The translations under genes and the position numbers were made by a program. Positions 30,141 through 57,176 of a stretch of 64,000 nt of DNA are shown here, one piece after another. The DNA is from a virus. The notes below the pieces were generated by a model. That model was not told the DNA's origin. It saw only the letters and a list, made by a program, of their open reading frames with translations, and did not search any database. The stretch spans positions 96,001 through 160,000 of IMG/VR virus record IMGVR_UViG_3300031857_000018; one strand, written 5' to 3'. Numbering within the stretch: position 1 is the first letter of the stretch; each line of letters starts with the position of its first letter.

Positions 30141-32022
<1,882 letters not shown>

Positions 32023-32057
32023 TTATTTCCTTTTATAACTTTATTTAATATAAATAT

Positions 32058-34148
32058 TTACTGAGCCATTTCCAAGAATTTTTTGTTAATTGTTTTGGAA
32101 ACCTCGGTCATATTTTCTGGACGAATGAATTGAGCATCCTGACCATACATAGTTTTGAAACATCGCACATCAGTTTCATATGACCCGTGTGAGATGAAGT
32201 AACTAATAACATTGATACCTATCTCGCGCATTCCATCCACGCAACGCTTTGTGAACTGCACAGGATCAAACCAATAATCTGCTCCGCTAATTGCGGTAGG
32301 TGCTCCATCTGAGTAGTTAATGAAAATCAATTCATCGCCTTTAGCATCCGCTTTAATGTCATTCTCAATACTTTTGAATGCTACACCTTCCGGAGTACAA
32401 CCAAATGTGCTAAGATATTTGAACATGTTTCGGATCTTGCTAATCTTGTCGTGAGCTGAGTCATATGCATACACAGTCACACAACGCTCACTGCTTCCTG
32501 CAATATTGGATGTTCCTCGCAAAGATATTTGCACTCGGATTCCTGTGGTCATTGCTGCAGCTTGTGCGATTGCTACTGCTGAGGTAATTGCTTGTTCCAA
32601 CTTGTCGCCAGACATCGATCCGGATGCATCAATTGAAATATGAATAAAATAGTTCTTGTAACGGTCAGTTACGATGCGGTGGAACACATTAGCATTGTTA
32701 TATCCTAATTGTGATACCAATCGACGGTCAATCTTACCAGCTGTCAATCTAGTAGTTTTAAGTGTGCGGTCTGCACTACGTAGTTGCAATTTGTTTCCTA
32801 ACTGCTTGCCTAAAACAATACCTCGATTAACTGCTTCATTCATACGGACCATGTCTCGTACACCATACCCATTATCAGTGAGTTGTCGTTTTCCGTTAAT
32901 AACATCAGCCGCATTGCTAGAAAACAACTGAGGCAAACTGCATACAATAGATTGAGTTAGCTTCTTAATAACAACCGTTGTCACCGGACAGCCATCGCCT
33001 GCTTTGTTAGTATACACATCGCGGGTTTCGGTTCCTGACTCGCGAAGAGCATTAACAACTGCTGCATCACTTTTGCTAAGACGTCCTTGTTTCTTTTGCT
33101 CGCCGGACAAGAATTCTCGTTGAGCTTGGATAGCCTTTGCCAGTTTATCCAACTCTTTCATTGACATCTTAGGATGCGTTTCTTCTGATTGGTCGTCATC
33201 AGATCCATCGCCACCATCGCCAGGTTCTCCTTCGCCTTCGCTGTCAGACGGTTCGCCTTCTGAATCTGCATCTCCTGGTATTCCTGCTTGTGGAGTTCCT
33301 CCTGCTTGTGGTGTCGGCTGAGTTGTCCCGGGATTTGGTACTGATGGCAATGTGCCTACTGCGGATCTTACTATGCGGAACATATCAATAGCCAACATCA
33401 AAGCATCCTCGGTAGTCTTTAAGCGATCAATGTTGCGAAGATCTACTAGGTTCCATATATCTCGCAAAGCCTTAAGCGAATCTAATTGTCGGTTTGGATT
33501 AGTGAAGTTGATGATGTGGAACATGTACGTGTCCCAATCTTCATCGGTCTTCTCGTTTCCAATCAACGCTTTGTCAATAATTTTGTCGTTGAAGTATTTG
33601 TCATACATTGCTTCATAATACATACGGTATCCCGGAGCATTAGTATAGATTTTATAATCGATGCGACGGTCTTCAACCCAATTCAATAAGTCTTTGATTA
33701 CTGCAAAGTCGCGGTTGGTCATTGTCATTTCTGGATCCAAGCCTTGCATCTGAACAATCTTTCCCATCCTAGTACCAGATAATGAATGAGAACCTTTAAA
33801 CATGGTAAAGTCAGTGTATGCAATATGGGAACCTTCATGCAATGCTAATCCTACAGCTGGGTCAAAGTTCTTGTCCTCCAACTTGGTACCAATCACAACT
33901 TTCTCGCCATCGGTGTAACTTTGGTCGTTGCTTTGGAATACTACTGGGATCTGCTTGCCTGTAACGATATTAACAAAGTTACCGATAGCTCGTTGAGCTG
34001 CAGCCAATTTGGTAAAGTCGGTGCTTTTGCCTCGGCCAAAGTCGGTATCAAAATCTTCGTTTAACCAAAAGCTTGATGCTGCGCGTTGGTATCCGCGGAA
34101 GCCAGTGCCGGCTTGAATTGCATTGGGAAATTTAATGTCTCTTTTCAT
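32058..34148 (-). CDS. VWA-domain protein with N-terminal HExxH (CobT-like MoxR partner)
   Basis: ALHEGSH, NWVEDRRI, acidic linker, MIDAS DASGSM ... SDGAP. Confidence 0.88.
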   Translation of the reverse strand: MKRDIKFPNAIQAGTGFRGYQRAASSFWLNEDFDTDFGRGKSTDFTKLAAAQRAIGNFVNIVTGKQIPVVFQSNDQSYTDGEKVVIGTKLEDKNFDPAVGLALHEGSHIAYTDFTMFKGSHSLSGTRMGKIVQMQGLDPEMTMTNRDFAVIKDLLNWVEDRRIDYKIYTNAPGYRMYYEAMYDKYFNDKIIDKALIGNEKTDEDWDTYMFHIINFTNPNRQLDSLKALRDIWNLVDLRNIDRLKTTEDALMLAIDMFRIVRSAVGTLPSVPNPGTTQPTPQAGGTPQAGIPGDADSEGEPSDSEGEGEPGDGGDGSDDDQSEETHPKMSMKELDKLAKAIQAQREFLSGEQKKQGRLSKSDAAVVNALRESGTETRDVYTNKAGDGCPVTTVVIKKLTQSIVCSLPQLFSSNAADVINGKRQLTDNGYGVRDMVRMNEAVNRGIVLGKQLGNKLQLRSADRTLKTTRLTAGKIDRRLVSQLGYNNANVFHRIVTDRYKNYFIHISIDASGSMSGDKLEQAITSAVAIAQAAAMTTGIRVQISLRGTSNIAGSSERCVTVYAYDSAHDKISKIRNMFKYLSTFGCTPEGVAFKSIENDIKADAKGDELIFINYSDGAPTAISGADYWFDPVQFTKRCVDGMREIGINVISYFISHGSYETDVRCFKTMYGQDAQFIRPENMTEVSKTINKKFLEMAQ

Positions 34149-34296
34149 ATCAACTCTTTTTATATATTATAAATATAAGAAATTATTTGGTATTATCCAA
34201 CCAAAAAGATTAAAAAAATGGAGCTGTTTACACACTAACCGTTATGCCTATCAGGTTAAACGGGTCACTCCATTTTCTTGAGCTATGAAAAAGATC

Positions 34297-35448
34297 TTAG
34301 AATGGGATATTGTTTAAGTTATCTGTATCGGCTCCTACATTGAAAATGTCTTTCTCTGCAGTTGCCATATGTTTCTGAATAATTTGTTTCACAAAGGTTC
34401 TTTCAGAATCTGCACCTCCTGATGCATCAAAGAAAGGAAGGATTGCTACCTCAGCAGCTTCAATCAAAGTGAATCCATCTGCTAACAAGTCGCAAATACG
34501 AACCGTCATACGAGTGGATACCATGGTGCTGAGTTTACCGTCTTCAGATCTCCATTCTTTGCGAGTAGAGTCTGCAATGTCAGCCACTGCATGAATAAGC
34601 TCTGGTGTCACCTTGTTACCAAACTTATAAGTCAATAGTGCTGCTTCACGCTCCATGGAAAGGATATCAACCTCAATGATTTCGAAACGATCCATCAAGG
34701 CACGGTCAAGCACGCGTGTCGATGTATACTCGGTACCAATGTTTGCCGTAGCAATAAATGATACACCCTCAGCAACCTTAATAGTCGGAGCATCAACATC
34801 TTCGTCTAGGCGAAGGTAACGCTGACCCTCATCCAACACTGTCATAAGGATGTTCCATGCCTCAGGATGCGCACGAGACAACTCGTCAAGCAAGATTACA
34901 GCATTCTCAGTTTGGATAGCCTTCACAAACGCTGACTCGTCAAATGTGGTCTCGCCAGCTTTGAAATGCGTGTTACCAATCAGAGTAGCACGCGGATCCT
35001 GTGTAGCTCCTAAGTTAAAATAAAAGAATGCTCGGCCGGTTGCTTGTGGCAAAGCCTTTGCTGCTTGTGTCTTACCACAACCTGCAGGTCCTACCATCAT
35101 GATGTTCTTGCCACGAACTGCTGAACGAACCAAGTACTTCCATTTGATGTCAGACATTTCTAGGTCAGCCGGCTTGATGTTCTTAGCATTGTTAATGAAT
35201 GCCATCACCGGATCCATCTCTGTAGCTTCTGCTACTTGTGGGGTGCGTGGCTCTGCAGGAATATCTGCCATTGGCACTCGCTTACCGCGACACGTGTCAA
35301 AATTATACTTTAGCCCTTCCATGTTGGTTGCAGCCAAATTGATCATGTCCGCGCGGAACAAGTGCGTAATGTTTGCGCCGGTGTTTACCTCAATTACACG
35401 TACGCCTTTTGCATCGATTTCAACGATACCATAAGTTTCTTTTTTCAT
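34297..35448 (-). CDS. MoxR/CbbQ/NirQ-type AAA+ ATPase
   Basis: GPAGCGKT, LLDELSRA, IATAN, LDRALMDRF, STR. Confidence 0.92.
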   Translation of the reverse strand: MKKETYGIVEIDAKGVRVIEVNTGANITHLFRADMINLAATNMEGLKYNFDTCRGKRVPMADIPAEPRTPQVAEATEMDPVMAFINNAKNIKPADLEMSDIKWKYLVRSAVRGKNIMMVGPAGCGKTQAAKALPQATGRAFFYFNLGATQDPRATLIGNTHFKAGETTFDESAFVKAIQTENAVILLDELSRAHPEAWNILMTVLDEGQRYLRLDEDVDAPTIKVAEGVSFIATANIGTEYTSTRVLDRALMDRFEIIEVDILSMEREAALLTYKFGNKVTPELIHAVADIADSTRKEWRSEDGKLSTMVSTRMTVRICDLLADGFTLIEAAEVAILPFFDASGGADSERTFVKQIIQKHMATAEKDIFNVGADTDNLNNIPF

Positions 35449-46049: not shown

Positions 46050-46079
46050 ATTATAATTTCCTATTTATTATAAATATCA

Positions 46080-46427
46080 TCATTTCCAAAAGAGCTGTAT
46101 TAAAATCAATGCAAATGCTAATCCGAGAGACACTGCTGTTTTTAAATTGATGGCTTCATCCCGGAATACCCAGGTCATGATGGCAAACATAGTAATACCA
46201 GTAACAAATGAAACAAATCGACCCGGCCAAAATGCACCGTCAAACCCGGTAACTGCAAATCGTGTTGCTTCCATAAACAACCAAGTGATTGGAACACCCA
46301 TTAGCATAAGTGCCCATCGGTATGTTTTAGCCCATGGCCATATTAATGGTCCATTTGTTTGTATCCAAACGAAGCTTTGTCCTACTAAAAAAATTAATAT
46401 GGAAAATATAATGTATTTATAGTTCAT
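46080..46427 (-). CDS. 4-TM small membrane protein (SMR/DMT-like)
   Basis: Four hydrophobic helices; middle-type promoter. Confidence 0.75.
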   Translation of the reverse strand: MNYKYIIFSILIFLVGQSFVWIQTNGPLIWPWAKTYRWALMLMGVPITWLFMEATRFAVTGFDGAFWPGRFVSFVTGITMFAIMTWVFRDEAINLKTAVSLGLAFALILIQLFWK

Positions 46428-46465
46428 ATCATATAATATGAAATTTACTACAGAATTCAAAGTAA

Positions 46466-47038
46466 TTATTTATTAGAGTCAGATGCGTATTTAACACCCA
46501 TGATAGTGCCGATGATACTAAAAGCATTTGTTAGCAATATACCAAACATATTACTCCACGTGCTACCAATGATCTGAGTATCTTTATTAACAAACAATGC
46601 AACCATATATATAACGGTAGTTGTGACACCTACTCCGATTATGATAATAAGTGATATACGAACAATTAGATTGATTAACTCGAACTGAGTTCGTTTTTGT
46701 ATCATGTCTAAACTGTCCATGGCGGCATCGCGGGCTGTTTCAGCATCACATTTGGATTGTTCTGCATCCGTTGCTGCTTGTTGAAGTTCTATCATCAACT
46801 GTTGATTTTGTTCGTTTGATTCAACTAGTTGTTTGTTTTGATCTTGTATTTGTTTGGTTATTTCTAATCGTTTTCGTCGATTTTCTTTATCGCGGGTTGT
46901 GCATGTTTTTATATATGCATCAAACTCAATATCATCGGTTGAATCAATTAACTTTAGAATGTTGCCTTCTAGAGCTATATTTTTACGGGCATATAACTCA
47001 ATTAATTTTTGTTTAGTATTATCATCTAATACTATCAT
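46466..47038 (-). CDS. coiled-coil plus 2-TM membrane protein coupled to the response regulator
   Basis: ATGA overlap with the RR; FSIIGTIMGVKY. Confidence 0.8.
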   Translation of the reverse strand: MIVLDDNTKQKLIELYARKNIALEGNILKLIDSTDDIEFDAYIKTCTTRDKENRRKRLEITKQIQDQNKQLVESNEQNQQLMIELQQAATDAEQSKCDAETARDAAMDSLDMIQKRTQFELINLIVRISLIIIIGVGVTTTVIYMVALFVNKDTQIIGSTWSNMFGILLTNAFSIIGTIMGVKYASDSNK

Positions 47039-47472
47039 CGATACACTTTAAATGGGGCAGTGCGTGCTTTATACCCGTCATAGTCTGCGCGGAATTGTTC
47101 TAAACGAGGTTCGATATCATCTGACTTAATTATCCAAAACTGTGCGCCGGCTTGAATTGCCTTTGCTTGTTCTTCTGGTTCATTTGATGATGAGATGATT
47201 CCAATAACCACGTTATTACCATACTCAAAATTAATTTTTCTGATAAGTTCGATACCATCAAACGAACTACCAATAATATTCAAGTCAACAAATACACATT
47301 CGGGTTTATCGTTAGCATCGCCACTTTGAAACCATTTTTGAAACAGTTTTGCTGCTTCGTCGGAACTATTTAATGAGTTTAAAGACAAACTTATATCGAG
47401 CAATGAACATGCATCTTCAAATACTAAGTGGAATAAATCTTCATCATCTACCAATAAAATTGAATCAATCAT
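47035..47472 (-). CDS. single-domain response regulator (receiver)
   Basis: ILLVDDE, FVDLN (phospho-Asp), DGIEL, IISSS, AGAQFWIIK. Confidence 0.92.
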   Translation of the reverse strand: MIDSILLVDDEDLFHLVFEDACSLLDISLSLNSLNSSDEAAKLFQKWFQSGDANDKPECVFVDLNIIGSSFDGIELIRKINFEYGNNVVIGIISSSNEPEEQAKAIQAGAQFWIIKSDDIEPRLEQFRADYDGYKARTAPFKVYR

Positions 47473-49078
47473 TTTTGCTTTCCTTTATTTTTATTTTCAT
47501 TTTTGTGCCTGTTTCATTTTTTTCACAGGTAATATTAAATCCATGTTCTTCTAAAATAGCAACACAAATATTTAAACCCAAACCAGTTCCAGCTTCAGTT
47601 TGGCCTTCTTTCCGAGTATATGGTTTTGATAAATGATCAAAATCTTTTTGTGTAATACCTCTACCATTATCTTGAACGTAAATGGTATCATCATCGGAAT
47701 ATATTTTAACAAACTTAGTGTCAGAATCATTATACTTTAAACCGTTTCTAATCAAGTTATCCAATGCTGTACAGAACAATGCTTCGTTTACTTCGATGGT
47801 TGGTAACTGGTCGATAATAACTTGACTACTGTATGCAGTTGATGACAAGTAATCGGATAATATCATTTTCAAATCACATTCAGCTTTATTTAGTACAACA
47901 TCTTTTTTTACGAGATTGGTAAATTCATATACACCTTTATACACTTTTTGTGAATGTTTCAATCCTTCTTTAATCATGCGGATTGGGGCTTCAATTTTTA
48001 ATGAACTAATATCATCAGAACTTAATCTTCTTTCTAACGAACTAAGTCCCCTAGGCATATACGTATTAATACCTGAATGCATATCGTGTCTTAATATCTT
48101 AGCTGCGTGTTCTAGATACGTATTTTTCTTTTCAATCTCTTTCTTTTGTTCATATGAATCGGTAATATTAGTAGCAATTTTCAATATGCGATATATCTTG
48201 CCGTCCATTCCGATAATTGGATTATAAGTTGATTGTAAATACACTAAAGAGCCATCTTTTTTAACTCTTGTAATTTCACCGGTAAATAATATACCGTCAT
48301 TTAGTTTTTTCCAAAAAAGAGCATATTCTTCACTGTTAAAATGTGTGTCGTCTATAAATATTCTGTGGTGTTTTCCGACTAGTTCATCAGCTGAATCATA
48401 TCCCATGGTTGTTAAAAACAAGTCATTAGCAAAAATAATGTTACCTTCTAAATCAAATTCAATAACTGCGTTAGATTTATTTATGGCATTCATTCTATTA
48501 CGAATTTCTACTTCTTTTTTCTTAAGCTCCGTAACGTCTTGTCGTATTGATGAAAACCCTTCTAAATTGCCATGTTTATCAAATCGGGCTCTAATGTATG
48601 TGTCGACATAATATAGGTCACCTGTTTTTGTTTTGTTGGTGACAATTGCATTCCATATCTCACCTTTCATCACTGTTTCATACATCTTACCCCAGTACCC
48701 ATCGGGTTGTAGACCAGAGTTTACGATGATATGATCTTTACCGATAACCTCATCTAAAGACCATCCTGATACTTCTTCAAATTTTTTATTAACGTATGTT
48801 ATTTTACCAGTTTTATCAGCAATTGAAATAATTGCAGCTGTGTCAATAAACTCATCAGTATCTTTTATTTTTTTTAATAAAGTACTTGTTATATCAGCTG
48901 CGTGTGATTTCATTAAAAAATAAAATAGTGGTAAGAACACTAAAAAACACACAATTTCAATTCCGCGTGTAATGTAACTAGAATCTAATACTGAAAAGAA
49001 TACTAAACCTTTTGTTATAGCAAAAACTACTAATGTTACTATGGTAATACCTTTAAGTATTTTATGTAAACTAATCAT
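47465..49078 (-). CDS. membrane sensor histidine kinase with two PAS/PAC domains
   Basis: 2 TM; two PAS-PAC; H-box LRHDM; N-box NLIRNGLKY; DNGRGI; GTGLGL. Confidence 0.95.
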   Translation of the reverse strand: MISLHKILKGITIVTLVVFAITKGLVFFSVLDSSYITRGIEIVCFLVFLPLFYFLMKSHAADITSTLLKKIKDTDEFIDTAAIISIADKTGKITYVNKKFEEVSGWSLDEVIGKDHIIVNSGLQPDGYWGKMYETVMKGEIWNAIVTNKTKTGDLYYVDTYIRARFDKHGNLEGFSSIRQDVTELKKKEVEIRNRMNAINKSNAVIEFDLEGNIIFANDLFLTTMGYDSADELVGKHHRIFIDDTHFNSEEYALFWKKLNDGILFTGEITRVKKDGSLVYLQSTYNPIIGMDGKIYRILKIATNITDSYEQKKEIEKKNTYLEHAAKILRHDMHSGINTYMPRGLSSLERRLSSDDISSLKIEAPIRMIKEGLKHSQKVYKGVYEFTNLVKKDVVLNKAECDLKMILSDYLSSTAYSSQVIIDQLPTIEVNEALFCTALDNLIRNGLKYNDSDTKFVKIYSDDDTIYVQDNGRGITQKDFDHLSKPYTRKEGQTEAGTGLGLNICVAILEEHGFNITCEKNETGTKMKIKIKESKND

Positions 49079-49495
49079 TTATCGTATACCTTTATGCTTA
49101 TCTAATGCATCTAGAATTTGATTAAGAACTGGTGCTTTTATAAACCCTGCCATCGATGCATTTTTAAGTGTACTGATAATTTGTAATATAATGAATGGAA
49201 TTAAAATTGTTTCACTTAACCAAGAAGTTCCTGGATATCCTTTTTCTACAGACAGCAACACCGTTAAAATTATAATCCATGTTGCGGCTGTTCGAAGTAC
49301 TTTGATTGCTTTACATGTTTGAAAACCTTCTCGCTTTATTCCAGCAATTACACCAAAAAACCCATCGACAAACACTACTGCAATTAATGCTAGATATTGC
49401 TCGTAATAGTCGATAGATAGATTAAAAAAATACGAACATATAAATGATATCATGGTCGTTGTGGATAATATTATTGCTAGAGCGGTTGTTTTCAT
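49079..49495 (-). CDS. phage holin-like protein
   Basis: TM helices, VFVDGFFGV, ISTLKNA; next to endolysins. Confidence 0.7.
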   Translation of the reverse strand: MKTTALAIILSTTTMISFICSYFFNLSIDYYEQYLALIAVVFVDGFFGVIAGIKREGFQTCKAIKVLRTAATWIIILTVLLSVEKGYPGTSWLSETILIPFIILQIISTLKNASMAGFIKAPVLNQILDALDKHKGIR

Positions 49496-50286
49496 TTTAT
49501 ATCTGAAGATTCAATTAAAGTATATGAAAATTTATTACCATTTGCTGTTTTAGCTTTGCGACAAATTGACATAAACTCTTCAAAATCAGCAGAACGTTTA
49601 AATACCTGGCAGCCTTCCGACCAATTTTCTACATATGTTGAATCAGCGCCGGCTTTATGAATGTTGATTCCAAATACACCTTCTTGAATTGATTTTTCAT
49701 CATATACCATATCTTTGTTTGGATCGCGGAACACTTTAACTGGTTTGTTTTGTCCTAATGCTTCATACTTCCCGGCATGCAAACGCATTATGTGTGAATC
49801 GATATATTGTCCTTCTACTAAACGAGCAACACCAGCTTTGTTTCCATACTGCATTACGCCTTTTGTTCCTGGATCGGTTGTTGCTGACCAACAATGGAAT
49901 TTTTCTTCTCCGTTTACGGTGTAAGATACTGTAATGTGATCATCGAATAGATTGGTTACTTTCTGTCCAGTTGCTGAATTACGAACTCCGATTATATTTA
50001 AAACATAATCGTTGCCATCAAACCATTTATATCCTTTTGCTTTTACTGCTGACTCAATTTGGTCTTTTGTGTATTTTGAAACCGATGCTGGTTTTGCTTC
50101 TACAACGATTCCCATCTTAGCTAATGTTGCTGGGCCGACTACTCCATCTGCAGTTAATCCATTTTTAGTTTGCCACGCTTTAACTGCTTCTTCTGTTTTA
50201 GGTCCAAAATTTCCTACTGGATCTACACCTAATACTACTTGAATTTTTTTAACCGTCTCGTTGTTATCACCTTTTTTTAGTATCAT
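49492..50286 (-). CDS. peptidoglycan-binding domain protein with probable cell-wall peptidase domain
   Basis: PG_binding_1 (FGPKTEEAVKAWQ...ADGVVGPAT); GINIH...WSEGCQV. Confidence 0.85.
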   Translation of the reverse strand: MILKKGDNNETVKKIQVVLGVDPVGNFGPKTEEAVKAWQTKNGLTADGVVGPATLAKMGIVVEAKPASVSKYTKDQIESAVKAKGYKWFDGNDYVLNIIGVRNSATGQKVTNLFDDHITVSYTVNGEEKFHCWSATTDPGTKGVMQYGNKAGVARLVEGQYIDSHIMRLHAGKYEALGQNKPVKVFRDPNKDMVYDEKSIQEGVFGINIHKAGADSTYVENWSEGCQVFKRSADFEEFMSICRKAKTANGNKFSYTLIESSDIK

Positions 50287-50313
50287 AAAACTATCCTTAT
50301 TCGTAATTGTTGT

Positions 50314-50775
50314 TTAATCTTTCTTAAAATATAAATTTGCTTCTGCTTCGCGGCGACGAACTAGACCCCTTAACACGCGGCCTCCTGCCTTTGTCCATTT
50401 CATGAACTCAGCTCGGATAGTTTCGTCTGACGGATCAGCATTAACTTTTTTTAATAATGTTGATGATTTTAGGTTTGCTGGACCTAGATTGTAGGCAAAT
50501 GATACTAATGCATCGAATTGATTCTGATTGATGTCATCTCGACAATATGAATCTACATACTGCTCAAAACTTGCTAACATGCTTTTCAATAAGTCTGTGC
50601 CATGGACTTCCGTGATTGGAGTATCGGACATTGTTACTTTTTTACCACCTGGATAAAAAGTTGCGCCGTAACCAATAGTAGGAATTCCTGCAGGGCACTT
50701 ATAAGGTGCTGCGCGGAACCCTTCCATTGTTTTGATTATTTCAATTCCGGCCGTTCCTGTTTTTGTAATTTTCAT
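50314..50775 (-). CDS. lysozyme (GH24) endolysin
   Basis: EGFR..PYKCPAGIPTIGYG, QFDALVSFAYNLG, GLVRRREAE. Confidence 0.93.
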   Translation of the reverse strand: MKITKTGTAGIEIIKTMEGFRAAPYKCPAGIPTIGYGATFYPGGKKVTMSDTPITEVHGTDLLKSMLASFEQYVDSYCRDDINQNQFDALVSFAYNLGPANLKSSTLLKKVNADPSDETIRAEFMKWTKAGGRVLRGLVRRREAEANLYFKKD

Positions 50776-50793
50776 GACTGTTTAAACCTTTAT

Positions 50794-51012
50794 TTATTTT
50801 TTCATTAAAAACTTTTCAGCTACATTACCAGCAATACAGATAATTACAATAGTTTTAACTGCGTCTACTAGGTCTGTAGATGGTTTAATTGATTCATGTG
50901 AATATGAATTTAACACCATGGTAACAGAAATAAATAGGAATCCTAAAAATGCAATAACTCGTTTCATTGAGGTGTCTCCACCGGTAAACATTTCTTTGAT
51001 AAAATTTTTCAT
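50794..51012 (-). CDS. small 2-TM holin-like protein
   Basis: SMKRVI, two TM; first gene after a late motif. Confidence 0.65.
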   Translation of the reverse strand: MKNFIKEMFTGGDTSMKRVIAFLGFLFISVTMVLNSYSHESIKPSTDLVDAVKTIVIICIAGNVAEKFLMKK

Positions 51013-51070
51013 GTAGCTACTTTCTTATACTTCAAGTATAAATATCAGTAACTAGAATTTAATTGCAGTA

Positions 51071-51925
51071 TTATTCTTCAGAAACTGCTCGACCTATTTG
51101 TCTAGTCCAATCTAGGTCTGTGCGCACTATAACATTTTTAGTCATTGCGGCTACTAACATTGTTCTGTCGACACCTAGTTGGTTTGCAAGATATGCTAAC
51201 GCAGCTATGTCTTTAGGAAAACAATGCCCCCCAAAACCAAAATCGCCATCATGGCCAGGAACTGACCAATGTGAATTGCCCAATCGATCATCATAACGGG
51301 CATATTCGATTACTTTATCATAATCAATGTTTAAACCTTGGCAGATCTGATACATTTCGTTTGCAAATGAAATTTTTGTGGCTAAGAATGTATTAGTTAC
51401 ATACTTGATCATTTCAGCAATGGTACTGCTTGTTTTAATGATTGGCACTTTAGGAAATGCCTTTTCAAAATATCGTTTAACAATTGTAGTAGCAGAGTTA
51501 GGTCCTCCGAGTATGATTCGATTTTGATTTTTATAATCATCAACTGCGTTAGACTCTGTTAAGAACTCTGGATTAAACACAATATCCAATTCAGTGTATA
51601 ATTTATTTAATCGATCTGTTGTTCCTGGTGGAATAGTAGACTTAACAACTACAATATAATTTTTCTTATTGTATGCAATTACGTTGTTTTGAATTTCTGT
51701 TAGTGCAACATTTAAAATTTTTAAATCACATTCACCAGATTTCATCATCGGAGTAGGAACACATACAAATGCAATATCAGTGTTTAAAACTACATCTTCG
51801 ATGCCGTTAACATTGCGAAATTTGTTTCCATCTTTATCATATGCTTTAATATCAAATACATGTTGCATTCCTAATCGCACAGCATTTCCTACAAACCCCT
51901 GGCCAATAATTCCTAATGTATTCAT
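51071..51925 (-). CDS. UDP-glucose/GDP-mannose dehydrogenase family protein (no C-terminal domain)
   Basis: GQGFVG, VPTP, KST, NPEFL, GFGGHCFPKD. Confidence 0.9.
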   Translation of the reverse strand: MNTLGIIGQGFVGNAVRLGMQHVFDIKAYDKDGNKFRNVNGIEDVVLNTDIAFVCVPTPMMKSGECDLKILNVALTEIQNNVIAYNKKNYIVVVKSTIPPGTTDRLNKLYTELDIVFNPEFLTESNAVDDYKNQNRIILGGPNSATTIVKRYFEKAFPKVPIIKTSSTIAEMIKYVTNTFLATKISFANEMYQICQGLNIDYDKVIEYARYDDRLGNSHWSVPGHDGDFGFGGHCFPKDIAALAYLANQLGVDRTMLVAAMTKNVIVRTDLDWTRQIGRAVSEE

Positions 51926-51926
51926 A

Positions 51927-52784
51927 TTACAATCCGTTAATATATTGCTTTAATTTATCTGTCGGTGTCCAATTTAATAATTCTAACGCTACATCTCGTT
52001 CACGTAATGTTATACGATAGTTTCCTTTTTGATCTGGTAAATATGTTGTTGTGCAATTGAACTTCTCTATAAACATGGCTGCTACTTCATTCATTGAATA
52101 ATTTACTCCAGTACCCAATTCCCACGCATCCTCGATATAATGTTCAGTTTCCATGATTCGAATCAATCCATCAACAATGTGGTCTACATGTGTGAAATCT
52201 CTGCGCTGTTCGCCATCACCAATAATAGTAATTGGTTGTCCGTCTCGTACTTGTTTTCTCCAAATTCCAATCACAGCTGCATAGTCGCCATCCACAATTT
52301 CATTTGGTCCATACACATTGTAAAATCTTGCAATCTGCACTTTAAGTCCATAACACTCTTCATACATCTTACAAATTTCTTCTCCTAAGAACTTGCTTAA
52401 AGCATATGGTGAAATCCTAGGATTATGCCAACGGGATGATGATCCTGCATACACAACCTTTGCATCCGTATGTCTAGCATATTCTAAAACTTTGAAAGTT
52501 CCTGTTGTGTTTGCGTCATATGTTTCTAATGGTAGTTTAAATGATATTTGAATACGTGCAACTGCAGCAATATGGAATATAACATCAAATTTATCAACTG
52601 CTGGATTAAATATATTATCAATGTTATTAACATCATCTATAATGTATTTAACATTCTCTATTTTATTGTCCAATGTGCCGCAAGATAAATTGTCAATACA
52701 TGTTACGCCATGTCCTAATGCAACCAATTGTTTACATAAGTTTGAGCCAATAAAGCCTAGCCCACCTGTTACTAAAATTTTCAT
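51927..52784 (-). CDS. NAD-dependent epimerase/dehydratase
   Basis: TGGLGFIG, YALSK, RFYNVYGP, RDFTHV. Confidence 0.93.
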   Translation of the reverse strand: MKILVTGGLGFIGSNLCKQLVALGHGVTCIDNLSCGTLDNKIENVKYIIDDVNNIDNIFNPAVDKFDVIFHIAAVARIQISFKLPLETYDANTTGTFKVLEYARHTDAKVVYAGSSSRWHNPRISPYALSKFLGEEICKMYEECYGLKVQIARFYNVYGPNEIVDGDYAAVIGIWRKQVRDGQPITIIGDGEQRRDFTHVDHIVDGLIRIMETEHYIEDAWELGTGVNYSMNEVAAMFIEKFNCTTTYLPDQKGNYRITLRERDVALELLNWTPTDKLKQYINGL

Positions 52785-52794
52785 ATTCTAATTT

Positions 52795-53559
52795 CTATTT
52801 GTTTGTTATAAATTTTTTGTTTGTTAATGGATCGTGTCCTATGTATCCACCCCATTTGTATCGGGCATATTCATGGCCGGCTTGTTCTGCCAAGTTACGT
52901 TTCTCTCCATTTGCAGAAACTGCCGCAAAGTGATAAAAATGACAGTTCCATGTTCTTAGCATACGTAGTCCTGATAGTTGACATTTTAAAAAAAAGTCCC
53001 AATCGGCTACCATACCCATTTCATAATTTTCATCCCATCCGCCAACTCGAAGATAATCAAGCTTTGACATAAAGATAGGAAGTGTGGATCCACATTCCTC
53101 AGTTTTATCCCCAGATGCATAATGATAATCAAACAACCAAAATGCTTCAAGATCGAATGATGCAATGTCAGTTCCTAAATTTTCTATAATAAACTGAGGA
53201 AACATACTAGGAAACGGTTCTACTTGATTAGGTGTTATTACAGCACCTTCTTGCCATTCTTCTTCCAATGTAGAATCCCAAAATCTTGGAAACACGTTAT
53301 CGTCATTAACAATAAGTATTTTATCATATCGCGAATTGTATACACCTAGATTAGTTCCCCGACATTGACCTGCATTTTGTTCTAAGTTCAATATATCAAT
53401 TGAATCTTTCCAACGGTCTAAGACCTCTTTATTCAAGTCATAGTACCCGTCTACAACAACGATAATCTGATTTTTATTGCATTGTCCTTCAATTGCAGAA
53501 CGCAAACAAAGATCCAATGCGTCTGGACTTTTATATGTAGGAATTATTACTGATATCAT
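52795..53559 (-). CDS. GT2 glycosyltransferase
   Basis: ISVIIPTY, VVVDG, VNDD, VGGWDE. Confidence 0.9.
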   Translation of the reverse strand: MISVIIPTYKSPDALDLCLRSAIEGQCNKNQIIVVVDGYYDLNKEVLDRWKDSIDILNLEQNAGQCRGTNLGVYNSRYDKILIVNDDNVFPRFWDSTLEEEWQEGAVITPNQVEPFPSMFPQFIIENLGTDIASFDLEAFWLFDYHYASGDKTEECGSTLPIFMSKLDYLRVGGWDENYEMGMVADWDFFLKCQLSGLRMLRTWNCHFYHFAAVSANGEKRNLAEQAGHEYARYKWGGYIGHDPLTNKKFITNK

Positions 53560-54251
53560 AGTGTTGACCAATCTGTTAATGGTGATAACCAAGCTGTTTC
53601 ACCATGGGTAGCATAACCAGGAATCGGTGTTATTAACAATTGGTTTTGTTTTCTCAATTCTAAAAACATATGAAAATCATTAGGATGTGTACCGGCTGTG
53701 TGTGTTCTCAGAATTGTTTCTGTAAATTTCAATGTTGATACTTTGCTAGCAAATGTCATCGTAGTTGAATTAGTAATTTTCCAATGGCATGAATCCGTTA
53801 AGTAAATACGGGTATCTTCAGCACCGCCTTCACAGTATGGATTTCCGCCGCGGCTTGGATCTAAGTACTTGTCTGGATGATCGTATAGTGCAACGAATGA
53901 TGCACCTAAGTCAAATCCTTGTTTCAATACATCTGGAGAACCTTGCTTATGTAAATAATCATTTTCTACAAAATACACAATTTCATCATCTGCATAGGTT
54001 AATGCTTTATCTAACGCTAAATTGAATGTGCCGGCACCATTACCAACCGATACCTGAATGATATTTGCTGGGTCAATGTATCGTTTAATCATTGCTAACG
54101 TAGCATCACTACAATTGTCCGCAATAATTAGAATGTCATAAATATGATTAAAAAATACATTGCAGAAATTTTTTAAACATGATTCATTGTTGATGTAGTC
54201 TGGCTTTACTTTATTGTAACCAGCATCTGATATTCTATATATTATTTTCAT
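53556..54251 (-). CDS. GT-A glycosyltransferase
   Basis: ADNCSD, YFVENDYLH. Confidence 0.75.
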   Translation of the reverse strand: MKIIYRISDAGYNKVKPDYINNESCLKNFCNVFFNHIYDILIIADNCSDATLAMIKRYIDPANIIQVSVGNGAGTFNLALDKALTYADDEIVYFVENDYLHKQGSPDVLKQGFDLGASFVALYDHPDKYLDPSRGGNPYCEGGAEDTRIYLTDSCHWKITNSTTMTFASKVSTLKFTETILRTHTAGTHPNDFHMFLELRKQNQLLITPIPGYATHGETAWLSPLTDWSTL

Positions 54252-55204
54252 TTTAAAAATACGTTGTTAAACTGTTTCATTACCAACTCTGGTGAATACA
54301 TTGAATATGCATTCCAATTTTCATGTTTATTTATAATATCCGGAAAATTTGTTAAAATTCCAATTAATTCGTCATAGTTGTTATAGATTATTGATTTATC
54401 TCCTAGCATTTCAATATGTGCTAAATCATTGAATCCGGAATCACACCACGATGTTGTTATAATTGGTTTATTTTTTACAGAAAATTCAGCTACAGTTAAA
54501 CCAAATGATTCTCCTCCATTTCTTGCGTGTATACACGCATCACATGTATTAATAAATCCAATCTTTGTAGTCATATCAGATGTGCCACTTATAAAAAATA
54601 CATTTGACTCATCGCAAAATTGATTAGAATTCATAAACAAAAAATACATATTTTTGTTAGCTCGTGCAACATTTATAACAGCTTCGCGAGCAAATGGAAT
54701 ATTAAATGAATCCGGGCCGCCATAATATCCAAATACTAGTGCATCTGTTGGTATATTAAAAAATTGACGATAGTTTTCCATATGGTCGTATTTTAAAATA
54801 TCAACAATATGCGGGACAAATGGCAATGTACCGCCTGACATTTGTGTTGATAACCATTTAGATACATATGCATATACATCTCCGTGTGGATCATGTAACT
54901 GAAAAACGGAATGTACTAAATTTTTAGCATTCGGTACTAGTTTGCCATCATTCATACCAGCTTTTATATAATAAACGGCATCAATTTGATTTTGATCGAT
55001 ATAAGATATAACATCATCAAATTTGTCATATAAAAATACATTAAACTGTTTTTGAAATTTATCCAATGCAGCTAAATCTGAGTTTCGATTTGATATAATT
55101 ACTGAATCATTGTTTAATAATTCTTGATTATAATATGCATAATCAAATAAGGCAATTTCAGTTCCTCGAAGGCCTAGTTGTTCACTATGAAATGCAATTT
55201 TCAT
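54248..55204 (-). CDS. GT4-like glycosyltransferase
   Basis: RGTE, HARNGGESFGLTVAE. Confidence 0.8.
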   Translation of the reverse strand: MKIAFHSEQLGLRGTEIALFDYAYYNQELLNNDSVIISNRNSDLAALDKFQKQFNVFLYDKFDDVISYIDQNQIDAVYYIKAGMNDGKLVPNAKNLVHSVFQLHDPHGDVYAYVSKWLSTQMSGGTLPFVPHIVDILKYDHMENYRQFFNIPTDALVFGYYGGPDSFNIPFAREAVINVARANKNMYFLFMNSNQFCDESNVFFISGTSDMTTKIGFINTCDACIHARNGGESFGLTVAEFSVKNKPIITTSWCDSGFNDLAHIEMLGDKSIIYNNYDELIGILTNFPDIINKHENWNAYSMYSPELVMKQFNNVFLK

Positions 55205-55890
55205 ATATTTAAAAAGTTGTTTAATTTGTTAATGTTCATTGTAATATCACCAGGTACCCGATCAGGCTTATACGATGGTTTAACTCGATCATTGGTTTTT
55301 ATTGCTAAGTCGTATATAGTTTTAGAATCTGTACCAACATTGTAGACTCCAGTTGCTTGTTGATGAATCAGTTTAACAATTAAATTGCTAATAACATCTA
55401 CAGAATCACAATTTGTATGTATATCTACCCAAGCAGTATCATACGGAAATGGATTAGGTTTATGTGATAATCGACAAATTAAATAGTTGTTACTTCGTAA
55501 TTGAACTAATGCATCGCCAACTAATTTTGTGTAACCATACCAAGTTGGTATGTGAACTGGGACATCGGTTTCTGATGCTACTGGTACAGAGCCGGCATAG
55601 ATATAATCGGTAGAAATATGAATTAATTTTTTGTTAGTCGAATTGCATACATCAATTAAATCGTTGAGAGCTTGAAGATTAACGTCCCACGCTGTTTGCA
55701 TATCTACGCCGTATGTATCAGTATATGCAATACAGTTAACTACAGTATCGTATGAATCATTTAGTAAATGTGACCATTCTGATAACTGAGTAATATCAAT
55801 ATTGTTATGTGTTCTGGAAATATAGTCCCAATTGGTTTGCCGAATTAATTCTTGTCCCAATAAGCCTTGTCCGAGTACAACTACGTTCAA
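55201..55890 (-). CDS. RmlD-like sugar-nucleotide reductase
   Basis: GQGLLG, IAYT, HISTDY, YGYTK. Confidence 0.85.
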   Translation of the reverse strand: MNVVVLGQGLLGQELIRQTNWDYISRTHNNIDITQLSEWSHLLNDSYDTVVNCIAYTDTYGVDMQTAWDVNLQALNDLIDVCNSTNKKLIHISTDYIYAGSVPVASETDVPVHIPTWYGYTKLVGDALVQLRSNNYLICRLSHKPNPFPYDTAWVDIHTNCDSVDVISNLIVKLIHQQATGVYNVGTDSKTIYDLAIKTNDRVKPSYKPDRVPGDITMNINKLNNFLNI

Positions 55891-57176
55891 AATTTAAAAT
55901 CCTTTATAACTTGTTCTATATACATAAATACCTCATCCGTATAATGTGGTGCTGCTCCAATAAAGAACACTGAATCTAAAACTTTGTTAGCTTCTGGATA
56001 TTTAGATGAATCATCTAAAAAACTATAACCTGGATGTAGTAATATGTTCCCGGCAAAATAGTTTCTTGTTTGTATTTTATTCTTTTCTAGATGTTCTACT
56101 AGTTTATGTTTCAGCCCCGGTGTTTCGCATATGAATGGAGTTCCAAACCAACATGGTTCTGCTGATTCTAAGGTTACCGGAGTTCGTAAATTTGGTATAT
56201 GCTTTAAAAATATATCACTAATTACAGTTTTTGATCTTTTTCGTTTTGATTCAATATCATCTAGTTTTTTCAACTGTTCGATGCCGATGGCTCCTTGTAA
56301 ATCTAATGGCTTAAGATTATACCCCATTTCTGAAAATACATACTTATGATCAATTACGCCATCGTAATTATCTAACCACTTATCAAAACGATTACCGCAT
56401 GTGCCACACGCTAATAGATTTGCTGATCCTATACAATAGCAGTCGCGACCCCACCAACTAATTGACACAAATAACTTTTTTAATTCATCATCATTTGTAC
56501 AAATCATTCCGCCTTCTCCGGTGGATATATGATGTGCTGGGTAGAATGAATTTGAAAATGCAACGTAATATTCATTTAAATATTTGCCATTCCATTTAGA
56601 TCCTAAACTATCACAATTATCCCCAACAAGTTTCAAATTGTATTTTTCACATAGTTCTAGTAATCTATCAATGTTCGGTGGATTACCTAGTACTGGAGAA
56701 ACAAAGATTGCTTTTGTTTTTGGAGTAATTTTTTGTTCAAGTAAATCCAAATCAAAATTCAAGGTGTCCCATTCAATATCAACAAAAATTGGTTTTAATC
56801 GATGTTGATAAATTACTGATATTGTAGTTGCAAACCCAACAGGCGACACTATAATTTCATCATCATCAGCCCAATTAAATCTACGCTTCAATGCAGCAAT
56901 CAAAACCAAATTGGCTGAACTACCTGAGTTTACCATGTGTGAATGTTTAACATTGAACTTTTTACTAAACTCGAGTTCAAACTTATAAACTCGTTCTCCG
57001 GTAGTAATCCATTTACCATTCAAAAATGAATGAATTGCAGCTTCGGTTTCTTTTTCATCCCAATATGGTCCTGAGTAATATATTGGAGTAGTGCCCGGTA
57101 TAAAATTTTTATTATTGTAAATATATGGAGCTACGTGATTGCCAATTAATGTTTGTATGTCGCTTTTTTGTATCAT
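55887..57176 (-). CDS. rfbH: RfbH/DdhC-type NDP-4-keto-6-deoxyglucose 3-dehydratase (DegT family)
   Basis: SFYPAHHISTGEGG (His in place of PLP Lys), GRDCYC...TCG Fe-S motif, DHKY. Confidence 0.85.
   Translation of the reverse strand: MIQKSDIQTLIGNHVAPYIYNNKNFIPGTTPIYYSGPYWDEKETEAAIHSFLNGKWITTGERVYKFELEFSKKFNVKHSHMVNSGSSANLVLIAALKRRFNWADDDEIIVSPVGFATTISVIYQHRLKPIFVDIEWDTLNFDLDLLEQKITPKTKAIFVSPVLGNPPNIDRLLELCEKYNLKLVGDNCDSLGSKWNGKYLNEYYVAFSNSFYPAHHISTGEGGMICTNDDELKKLFVSISWWGRDCYCIGSANLLACGTCGNRFDKWLDNYDGVIDHKYVFSEMGYNLKPLDLQGAIGIEQLKKLDDIESKRKRSKTVISDIFLKHIPNLRTPVTLESAEPCWFGTPFICETPGLKHKLVEHLEKNKIQTRNYFAGNILLHPGYSFLDDSSKYPEANKVLDSVFFIGAAPHYTDEVFMYIEQVIKDFKF

Follow-up and report, generated by a model that had tools for sequence, protein, structure and literature searches.

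The 64,000-nucleotide window analysed here (bases 96001-160000 of the single 169,328-bp contig of IMG/VR record IMGVR_UViG_3300031857_000018) encodes a unit of eight co-oriented genes that seems, on balance, to be a viral lysis cassette with a built-in signal-transduction path. The genes are arranged in the order h72, GH24 lysozyme, PGB, hol4, HK, RR, CC and m126, in which HK is a sensor histidine kinase, RR a receiver-only response regulator and CC a coiled-coil protein with a membrane hairpin. CC is somewhat probably the sensor-controlled membrane effector of lysis, and on the sequences at hand its role as a holin and its role as a regulator of a holin appear about equally probable.

Strong evidence comes from relatives in which CC is fused directly to a sensor. 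The first such fusions were noticed on contigs of metagenome-assembled genomes (MAGs), where two PAS domains run into the CC coiled coil and hairpin (L161 1947-3104 and L163 7218-8333). The longer relatives of CC comprise 799 fusions of PAS-PAS-CC (about 370 amino acids) or GAF-CC (about 350 amino acids) type, their domains confirmed by Pfam, and these fusions possess no kinase transmitter, no RR and none of the first 60 to 95 residues of CC. Alignment of the CC family with the fusion family by hhalign gave a probability of 100 and an E-value of 1.4e-49 over CC 96-190, and the AlphaFold2 (AF2) model of a fusion has a single helix (246-327) that follows directly on the final PAS strand and passes into the first transmembrane (TM) helix, TM1. 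Another relative, P0241 (458 amino acids), carries a full-length CC behind an N-terminal stretch of about 230 amino acids without family and could represent either one more type of fusion or an error in gene calling.

Both forms are found at one and the same site. On both flanks locus L187 runs collinear with the window, with a nucleotide identity of about 90-92%, L187 1-1546 corresponding to window 51049-49508 and L187 3226-6824 to window 46443-42844. Between these flanks L187 contains a PAS-PAS-CC gene and hol4 in 1.68 kb, and the window contains hol4, HK, RR and CC in 3.06 kb, indicating that the relay has been exchanged for a one-gene sensor at the same cassette site. The coiled coil and hairpin of CC are thus, as judged from gene and domain arrangement, an output module receiving sensory input, through HK and RR in this genome and through fused PAS-PAS or GAF domains in relatives. 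An earlier reading of this DNA from its letters and open reading frames (ORFs), referred to below as the sequence-only reading, had proposed the downstream membrane protein as the output of the relay, and the fusions and the L187 exchange back this proposal strongly.

The lysis setting is likewise shared by relatives. In the 58 distinct relay-type loci that are flanked by four or more genes on either side, an endolysin is the adjacent gene in 23 and lies within three genes in 34; five types of endolysin (GH19, GH24, M15, Amidase_2 and phrog_3000) are encountered, on either side of the relay and on either strand. For the fused type, 40 distinct loci extend 2 kb or more in both directions; an endolysin lies no further than 1 kb away in 39 of them, and a holin-like small TM gene is present in 34. 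Gene orders found in relatives include h72 / sensor-CC / GH24 / M15 / hol4 / m126, small TM / sensor-CC / PGB / hol4 / m126, and GAF-CC / h72 / 80-aa protein / GH19, and the genome studied here has a single lysis cluster by the queries used. Synteny with holin and endolysin genes, proposed in the sequence-only reading as a check, is therefore positive, the trio of HK, RR and CC remaining beside lysis genes in relatives rather than lying at unrelated loci.

Judged from its distribution and divergence, HK-RR-CC is an old phage module in which CC is phage-only and genetically locked to HK and RR. In IMG/VR the kinase was matched in 78 loci (57-91% identity) and CC in 246 stretches, and the order HK-RR-CC is kept in every locus spanning the three genes (107 distinct IMG/VR loci), with family members 55-91% identical. 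In 75 of 84 distinct pairs the end of RR overlaps the beginning of CC by 4 or 1 nucleotides, indicating translational coupling of the two genes. Relatives of CC form 6793 clusters at 90% identity, possess neither a Pfam domain nor an informative name, and are mostly annotated as 'hypothetical protein'. The kinase transmitter has 4965 relatives; the best 120 of these are all at least 88% identical in the transmitter, and among the same 120 the sensor part varies, with TM-PAS-PAS, GAF-PAS-PAS and shorter forms. Viral contigs bearing the module reach 322 kb. No cellular homologue of CC was found in one genome for each of 185,579 prokaryotic species, where only eight MAG contigs (L157-L164) matched. 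Five of these carry the whole relay and four (L160-L163) are fusion-like, and their assignments to eight phyla (Verrucomicrobia, Bdellovibrionota, Gemmatimonadota, Saccharibacteria, Flavobacteriales, Ignavibacteria, Saprospira and Alphaproteobacteria) are scattered; they are probably mis-binned phage DNA. That the trio might be a recent insertion from a host, or a decaying passenger without a role, is scarcely credible on these numbers. The G+C content of the module (about 0.33) is similar to that of adjacent DNA and neither supports nor excludes this origin, but the thousands of diverged copies in viral contigs retain intact catalytic residues and the few MAG matches are apparently phage themselves. 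A recent host-derived insertion was accordingly rejected.

Many relatives possess an expanded module, consisting of a first kinase of TM- or GAF-PAS-PAS type, a secreted protein of about 205 amino acids without family, a second kinase, RR and CC (L049 6632-12000; L028 7485-12540). The second kinase bears a signal peptide, and its N-terminal domain (about 220 amino acids) belongs to no assigned family. This arrangement suggests that cytoplasmic and periplasmic inputs may converge on one receiver; the genome studied here contains the first kinase only. In several relatives a GIY-YIG/NUMOD3 homing endonuclease lies between the second kinase and RR (L049 10161-10883). A full-length Hsp70/DnaK gene (PF00012, E 3.7e-254; L011 10166-12031) recurs a few genes from the module, as does a class II aminoacyl-tRNA-synthetase-like gene.

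HK possesses two N-terminal TM helices, PAS1 (78-190), PAS2 (204-307), a DHp domain with H331 and a CA domain (435-533). The TM helices are joined by a loop of about 10 residues and no periplasmic sensor domain is present, indicating that HK reads the cytoplasm or the membrane. The phospho-accepting histidine and CA domain are those of a HisKA-type two-component kinase: H331 sits in the motif RHDMHSGINTY, HATPase_c is matched at E 5.7e-16, and the DHp-CA region aligns to Thermotoga HK853 (3dge) at E 3.8e-10, with no HisKA match obtained from Pfam. The catalytic residues are kept in nearly all relatives (H331 in 99 of 99, N445 and D470 each in 98 of 99). PAS1 matches MmoS PAS-A (3EWK) at E 1.8e-26 and Aer at E 8e-16, and NifL was matched also. 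In Aer, H53, N85 and R115 are pocket residues tied to low-potential sensing by flavin adenine dinucleotide (FAD), with equivalents in MmoS (PMC9668731). H116, N148 and R179 of PAS1 align to these three, and are kept in 58 to 60 of the 99 aligned kinases, many of which have no PAS1; most relatives bearing PAS1 keep them. PAS1 thus resembles the flavin-binding redox sensors Aer (8DIK), MmoS PAS-A and NifL (2GJ3) in its matches, keeps the His/Asn/Arg pocket described for Aer, and has Ala where MmoS has T103. It also feeds a phage kinase, whereas the known flavin PAS domains feed a chemoreceptor or regulators of methane or nitrogen genes. The likely input of HK is therefore a flavin redox signal of Aer/MmoS type, and flavin binding by PAS1 may reasonably be assumed.

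RR scores 35.2 bits against Response_reg (cut-off 30.2) and carries the acidic pair, phospho-accepting aspartate, Ser/Thr and lysine of a receiver; D9, D10, D63, S94 and K116 are invariant in 47 diverse sequences, as is much of a C-terminal extension of about 25 amino acids. The intact catalytic motifs noted for both proteins in the sequence-only reading are thus present and conserved in relatives. The overlap of 8 nucleotides between the two genes, together with their conservation, suggests that HK and RR are a cognate two-component pair between which phosphate would be transferred. A Pfam scan of RR gave Response_reg only, with no output or DNA-binding domain. HK and RR could instead be auxiliary genes tapping the two-component networks of the host, like genes of the pho regulon, with CC a mere anchor or an unrelated neighbour. 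Kinase and regulator genes borne by phages have been reported as such (PMC9599517, PMC10987575), and RR, the best conserved of the trio with a median identity of 86% to relatives, would suit a fit to conserved host partners. This explanation is nevertheless quite unlikely: RR has no domain with which to bind DNA, no NCBIfam equivalog was reached, RR is translationally coupled to CC in most pairs, and the fusions drop HK and RR yet keep sensor and CC, which leaves CC as the constant output.

CC is composed of an N-terminal domain (1-50), a coiled coil (51-118), a C-terminal TM hairpin (119-184) and a short charged tail. In its AF2 model (predicted local distance difference test, pLDDT, 83) a single helix (37-149) continues into TM1, followed by TM2 (155-188), which shows a stripe of small and polar residues. 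Because relatives join the coiled coil to PAS or GAF domains, which are cytoplasmic, it is placed in the cytoplasm. No meaningful family was found for CC in Pfam, PHROGs or NCBIfam, and Foldseek against the PDB gave nothing at E of 0.001 or below, as expected for a long helix with a hairpin. A phmmer search with CC 96-190 against 1.84 billion representatives gave only 100 clusters, with the hairpin C-terminal in all; it gave no link to a known holin family, and short matches were indistinguishable from gene fragments. Compared with a classical holin (a small membrane protein of the lysis cassette, with one or more TM helices and a charged C-terminal tail), CC has the TM hairpin, the short charged tail and the position in the cassette, yet carries an additional cytoplasmic domain of about 118 amino acids and matches no holin family. 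The i-spanins have a periplasmic coiled coil with an N-terminal TM anchor, and the o-spanins are lipoproteins. CC was rejected as a spanin on topology, for it has neither a signal sequence nor an N-terminal TM segment and its hairpin is C-terminal.

The N-terminal domain of CC occupies the place taken by the sensor in the fusions and is thereby likely to be the docking site for RR. Structure prediction of RR with CC 1-118 gave a score of 0.32 (best control 0.00), with at least 87% contact agreement between runs and a partner pLDDT of at least 87. Solved complexes attained this mark in 58 of 80 cases and mismatched pairs in 2 of 110; at scores of 0.60 or less, only 7 of the 80 solved complexes did so, together with both mismatches, so that the predicted contact lends weak support.

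Several observations weigh against a sensor-controlled lysis effector, the weakness of this contact among them. In 18 of the 58 relay-type loci no recognised endolysin is found within 8 kb, and the link to lysis genes is loose in the relay-type branch. Syntenic loci of related phages do not each count as independent evidence, and INPHARED contains no cultured phage with the module: tblastn with HK gave only generic matches to PAS and ATPase domains, and RR gave none. The predicted flavin binding rests on three residues. CC is bigger than classical holins, and its TM2 is much more conserved than is usual for them. Most fused-CC cassettes contain two or three other small TM genes, as counted with a crude hydrophobicity filter that missed some genes found by tblastn, and CC is therefore not needed to explain hole formation. 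These adjoining small TM genes (h72, cl26, hol4) vary among relatives and CC is constant, a pattern that speaks for CC being a gated holin or else a component shared by all the cassettes.

The same constancy would also fit a module that sits in the cassette and does another job at the membrane, such as superinfection exclusion, or the maintenance or dissipation of host membrane potential or ion balance late in infection, with CC acting on a conserved host protein. Holins usually vary far more than CC, in which the median identity to the window copy reaches 89% over the loop and TM2 and is about 50% elsewhere. Such conservation fits a conserved partner and could reflect a conserved membrane target in the host, and the signal-peptide kinase and secreted protein of some relatives fit extracytoplasmic sensing. 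Against these points, no host partner is known, the position of the module, flanked by holin and endolysin genes in 39 of 40 fused loci, and the exchange in L187 are most simply read as a lysis function, and the unit is headed by a motif of virion genes, whereas superinfection-exclusion genes are usually early. We regard this other job as improbable, though a good deal less so than the auxiliary-gene explanation. A lysis effector under sensory control remains our preferred reading of CC. Its most specific version, in which the hairpin represents a novel type of holin whose opening is controlled from the cytoplasmic side, by a fused sensor or by the HK-RR phosphorelay, so that lysis time would follow the redox or energy state of the host, is put forward only tentatively.

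Under the preferred reading, HK, anchored in the membrane, would use a flavin in PAS1 to sense a cue in the cytoplasm or the membrane, probably the redox or respiratory state. It would then phosphorylate itself on H331 and pass the phosphate to D63 of RR, and phosphorylated RR would bind the N-terminal domain of CC, whose continuous helix would pass the change on to the hairpin. The hairpin may form the lethal hole itself, or may restrain and release the other holin candidates, h72 and hol4; in either case its action would set the moment when the two signal-less endolysins reach the wall. Relatives whose second kinase is periplasmic and accompanied by a secreted partner would add extracytoplasmic cues.

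The features of the unit are collected in Table 1. The seven ORFs named in the sequence-only reading are all present on the minus strand where it had placed them, and its claim that genes abut or overlap applies from PGB onward: PGB and hol4 overlap by 4 nucleotides, hol4 and HK abut, and RR and CC overlap by 4 nucleotides. Its composition of the unit stood for the seven named genes and failed in stopping at CC, since m126 belongs to the unit too. The start of m126 is probably an in-frame ATG at 46427, giving 115 amino acids (46080-46427).

Table 1. Features of the eight-gene unit and its bounding motifs, in window positions
Feature	Position	Strand	Match or remark
Virion-class ('late-type') promoter-like motif ATATTTATA	51037-51045	-	24 nucleotides before h72 start
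h72, 72-aa hydrophobic small membrane protein, holin candidate	50794-51012	-	no family match
GH24 phage lysozyme (endolysin)	50314-50775	-	PF00959, E 8.6e-43; phrog_7 endolysin, E 1.9e-51
PGB, probable second endolysin	49492-50286	-	PF01471 (PG_binding_1), E 8.3e-14; phrog_3000, E 1.5e-33; phrog_33083 (endolysin), E 2.2e-8
hol4, family-4 holin	49079-49495	-	PF05105 (Phage_holin_4_1), 27.4 bits, gathering cut-off 22.2
HK, membrane PAS-PAS histidine kinase	47465-49078	-	Pfam PAS (two) and HATPase_c
RR, receiver-only response regulator, 145 aa	47035-47472	-	PF00072 (Response_reg), E 1.6e-8
CC, coiled-coil protein with membrane hairpin	46466-47038	-	no family match
m126, four hydrophobic segments, last gene of unit	46080-46460	-	no family match
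Next ATATTTATA motif	46069-46077	-	heads 837-aa gene; bounds unit

The single late-type motif noted ahead of the unit is confirmed and is common to virion genes. The coding strand of the genome bears 37 copies of ATATTTATA and the opposite strand 3, mostly 12-30 nucleotides ahead of a start codon, and the motif is likewise found in front of the genes for portal, sheath, tube, baseplate hub and adaptor. The extent of eight genes follows from the next copy of the motif and from a terminator scan that gave no convincing minus-strand terminator between the copies at 51045 and 46077; terminator and sigma-70 scans gave site numbers no higher than in shuffled sequence. The motif heads GroEL, CobS-like and CobT-like genes as well (window 30391-35448), a class wider than structural and lysis genes, for which reason 'late' is a class label by association and not a measured timing. 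A perfect copy of ATATTTATA lies on the coding strand inside the kinase gene, within PAS2 (48353-48361), and may be there by chance or be an internal start site for a shorter product.

All long ORFs of the window are on the minus strand. The genes of the contig include those for portal, tail sheath, tail tube and baseplate-hub proteins, indicating a large tailed phage as its source. This phage probably infects Bacteroidota, as suggested by hol4, which has about 68% nucleotide identity to the annotated holin of Flavobacterium phage immuto; that holin adjoins a GH19 'chitinase', and hol4 was the only gene matched in the comparison with cultured phages. Upstream of the unit (window 51071-57176) lies a run of sugar-nucleotide and glycosyltransferase-like genes, and homologues of two ORFs of this run (285 and 265 amino acids) recur beside the cassette in relatives by tblastn.

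The GH24 lysozyme and PGB possess neither a signal nor a signal-arrest-release (SAR) segment, and a hole-forming holin is therefore needed for both. Assignment of hol4 to Phage_holin_4_1 is based on its score above the gathering cut-off and on its overlap with the PGB gene, and m126 accompanies hol4 and the sensor-CC gene in close relatives. For h72, described as holin-like in the sequence-only reading, that description rests only on hydrophobicity and on homologues (71-92% identity) that directly adjoin sensor-CC genes and endolysins in relatives. The C-terminal domain of PGB (about 190 amino acids, window 49492-50070) has no Pfam family and matches phrog_3000, a group of unknown function, and weakly an endolysin phrog. 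It is found also as a stand-alone 202-aa gene beside the module in relatives, and may represent a peptidoglycan hydrolase domain not yet described.

The timing of phage lysis is attributed to a holin 'clock', with antiholins making at most an adjustment, and we know of no phage that runs a sensory phosphorelay into its lysis machinery. In T4 lysis inhibition the antiholin RI, with RIII, acts on the holin T. This is alike in being a phage-encoded, signal-dependent delay or timing of holin triggering by protein contacts, and differs in having no kinase, receiver, PAS or GAF domain, in sensing through a periplasmic antiholin and in bearing no sequence relation to the phage module. In the CheA-CheY-FliM pathway a single-domain receiver acts by protein contact; CheY resembles RR as an output-less receiver that is phosphorylated by a kinase and binds a partner rather than DNA. 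The phage kinase, unlike CheA, belongs with HisKA-type dimers such as HK853; its receiver is presumed to act on a membrane hairpin protein, and chemotaxis parts are absent.

Closest to the module in function is the LytSR kinase and regulator pair of staphylococci, which controls the holin/antiholin-like proteins LrgAB and CidAB and thereby the access of murein hydrolases, and which is reported to sense the collapse of membrane potential (PMC2996381, PMC5717393). The likeness is functional only. LytSR is cellular and LytR acts on transcription through a DNA-binding domain, whereas the phage RR has no output domain and the output is an unrelated, phage-only membrane protein. By Pfam, none of the domains that define LytSR (LytS-type and LytTR) is present in the unit, whose signalling genes match only PAS, HATPase_c and Response_reg, with no match for CC. 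Clostridioides phage phiCDHM1 carries an agrC kinase without cognate regulator (PMC6127314), and pho-type auxiliary genes are found in phages (PMC9599517, PMC10987575). These share with the present module a histidine kinase carried by a phage, but for none of them has a place in a lysis cassette or a link to a membrane output protein been reported. A literature search on phage holins or endolysins with histidine kinases, and on lysis timing with PAS domains, gave no description of such a system.

The relay or its one-protein equivalent is found in an abundant group of large lake-water phages, represented by thousands of protein clusters at 90% identity and by contigs of 90-320 kb. Relay and fusion at the same locus form a natural design pair for studying the choice between one- and two-component signalling, and the parts of the module are short and intact, hence accessible to standard assays. 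If the hairpin were a gated holin, no earlier example of a lysis clock under phosphorelay control would be known from any virus. If CC is under sensory control, it would represent a new family of signal-gated membrane effectors. These phages probably time the bursting of their hosts by the host's internal state, as far as gene content and arrangement can indicate; burst timing in nature would then depend on host physiology through a defined, portable sensor-output module, which would bear on models of viral lysis in lakes.

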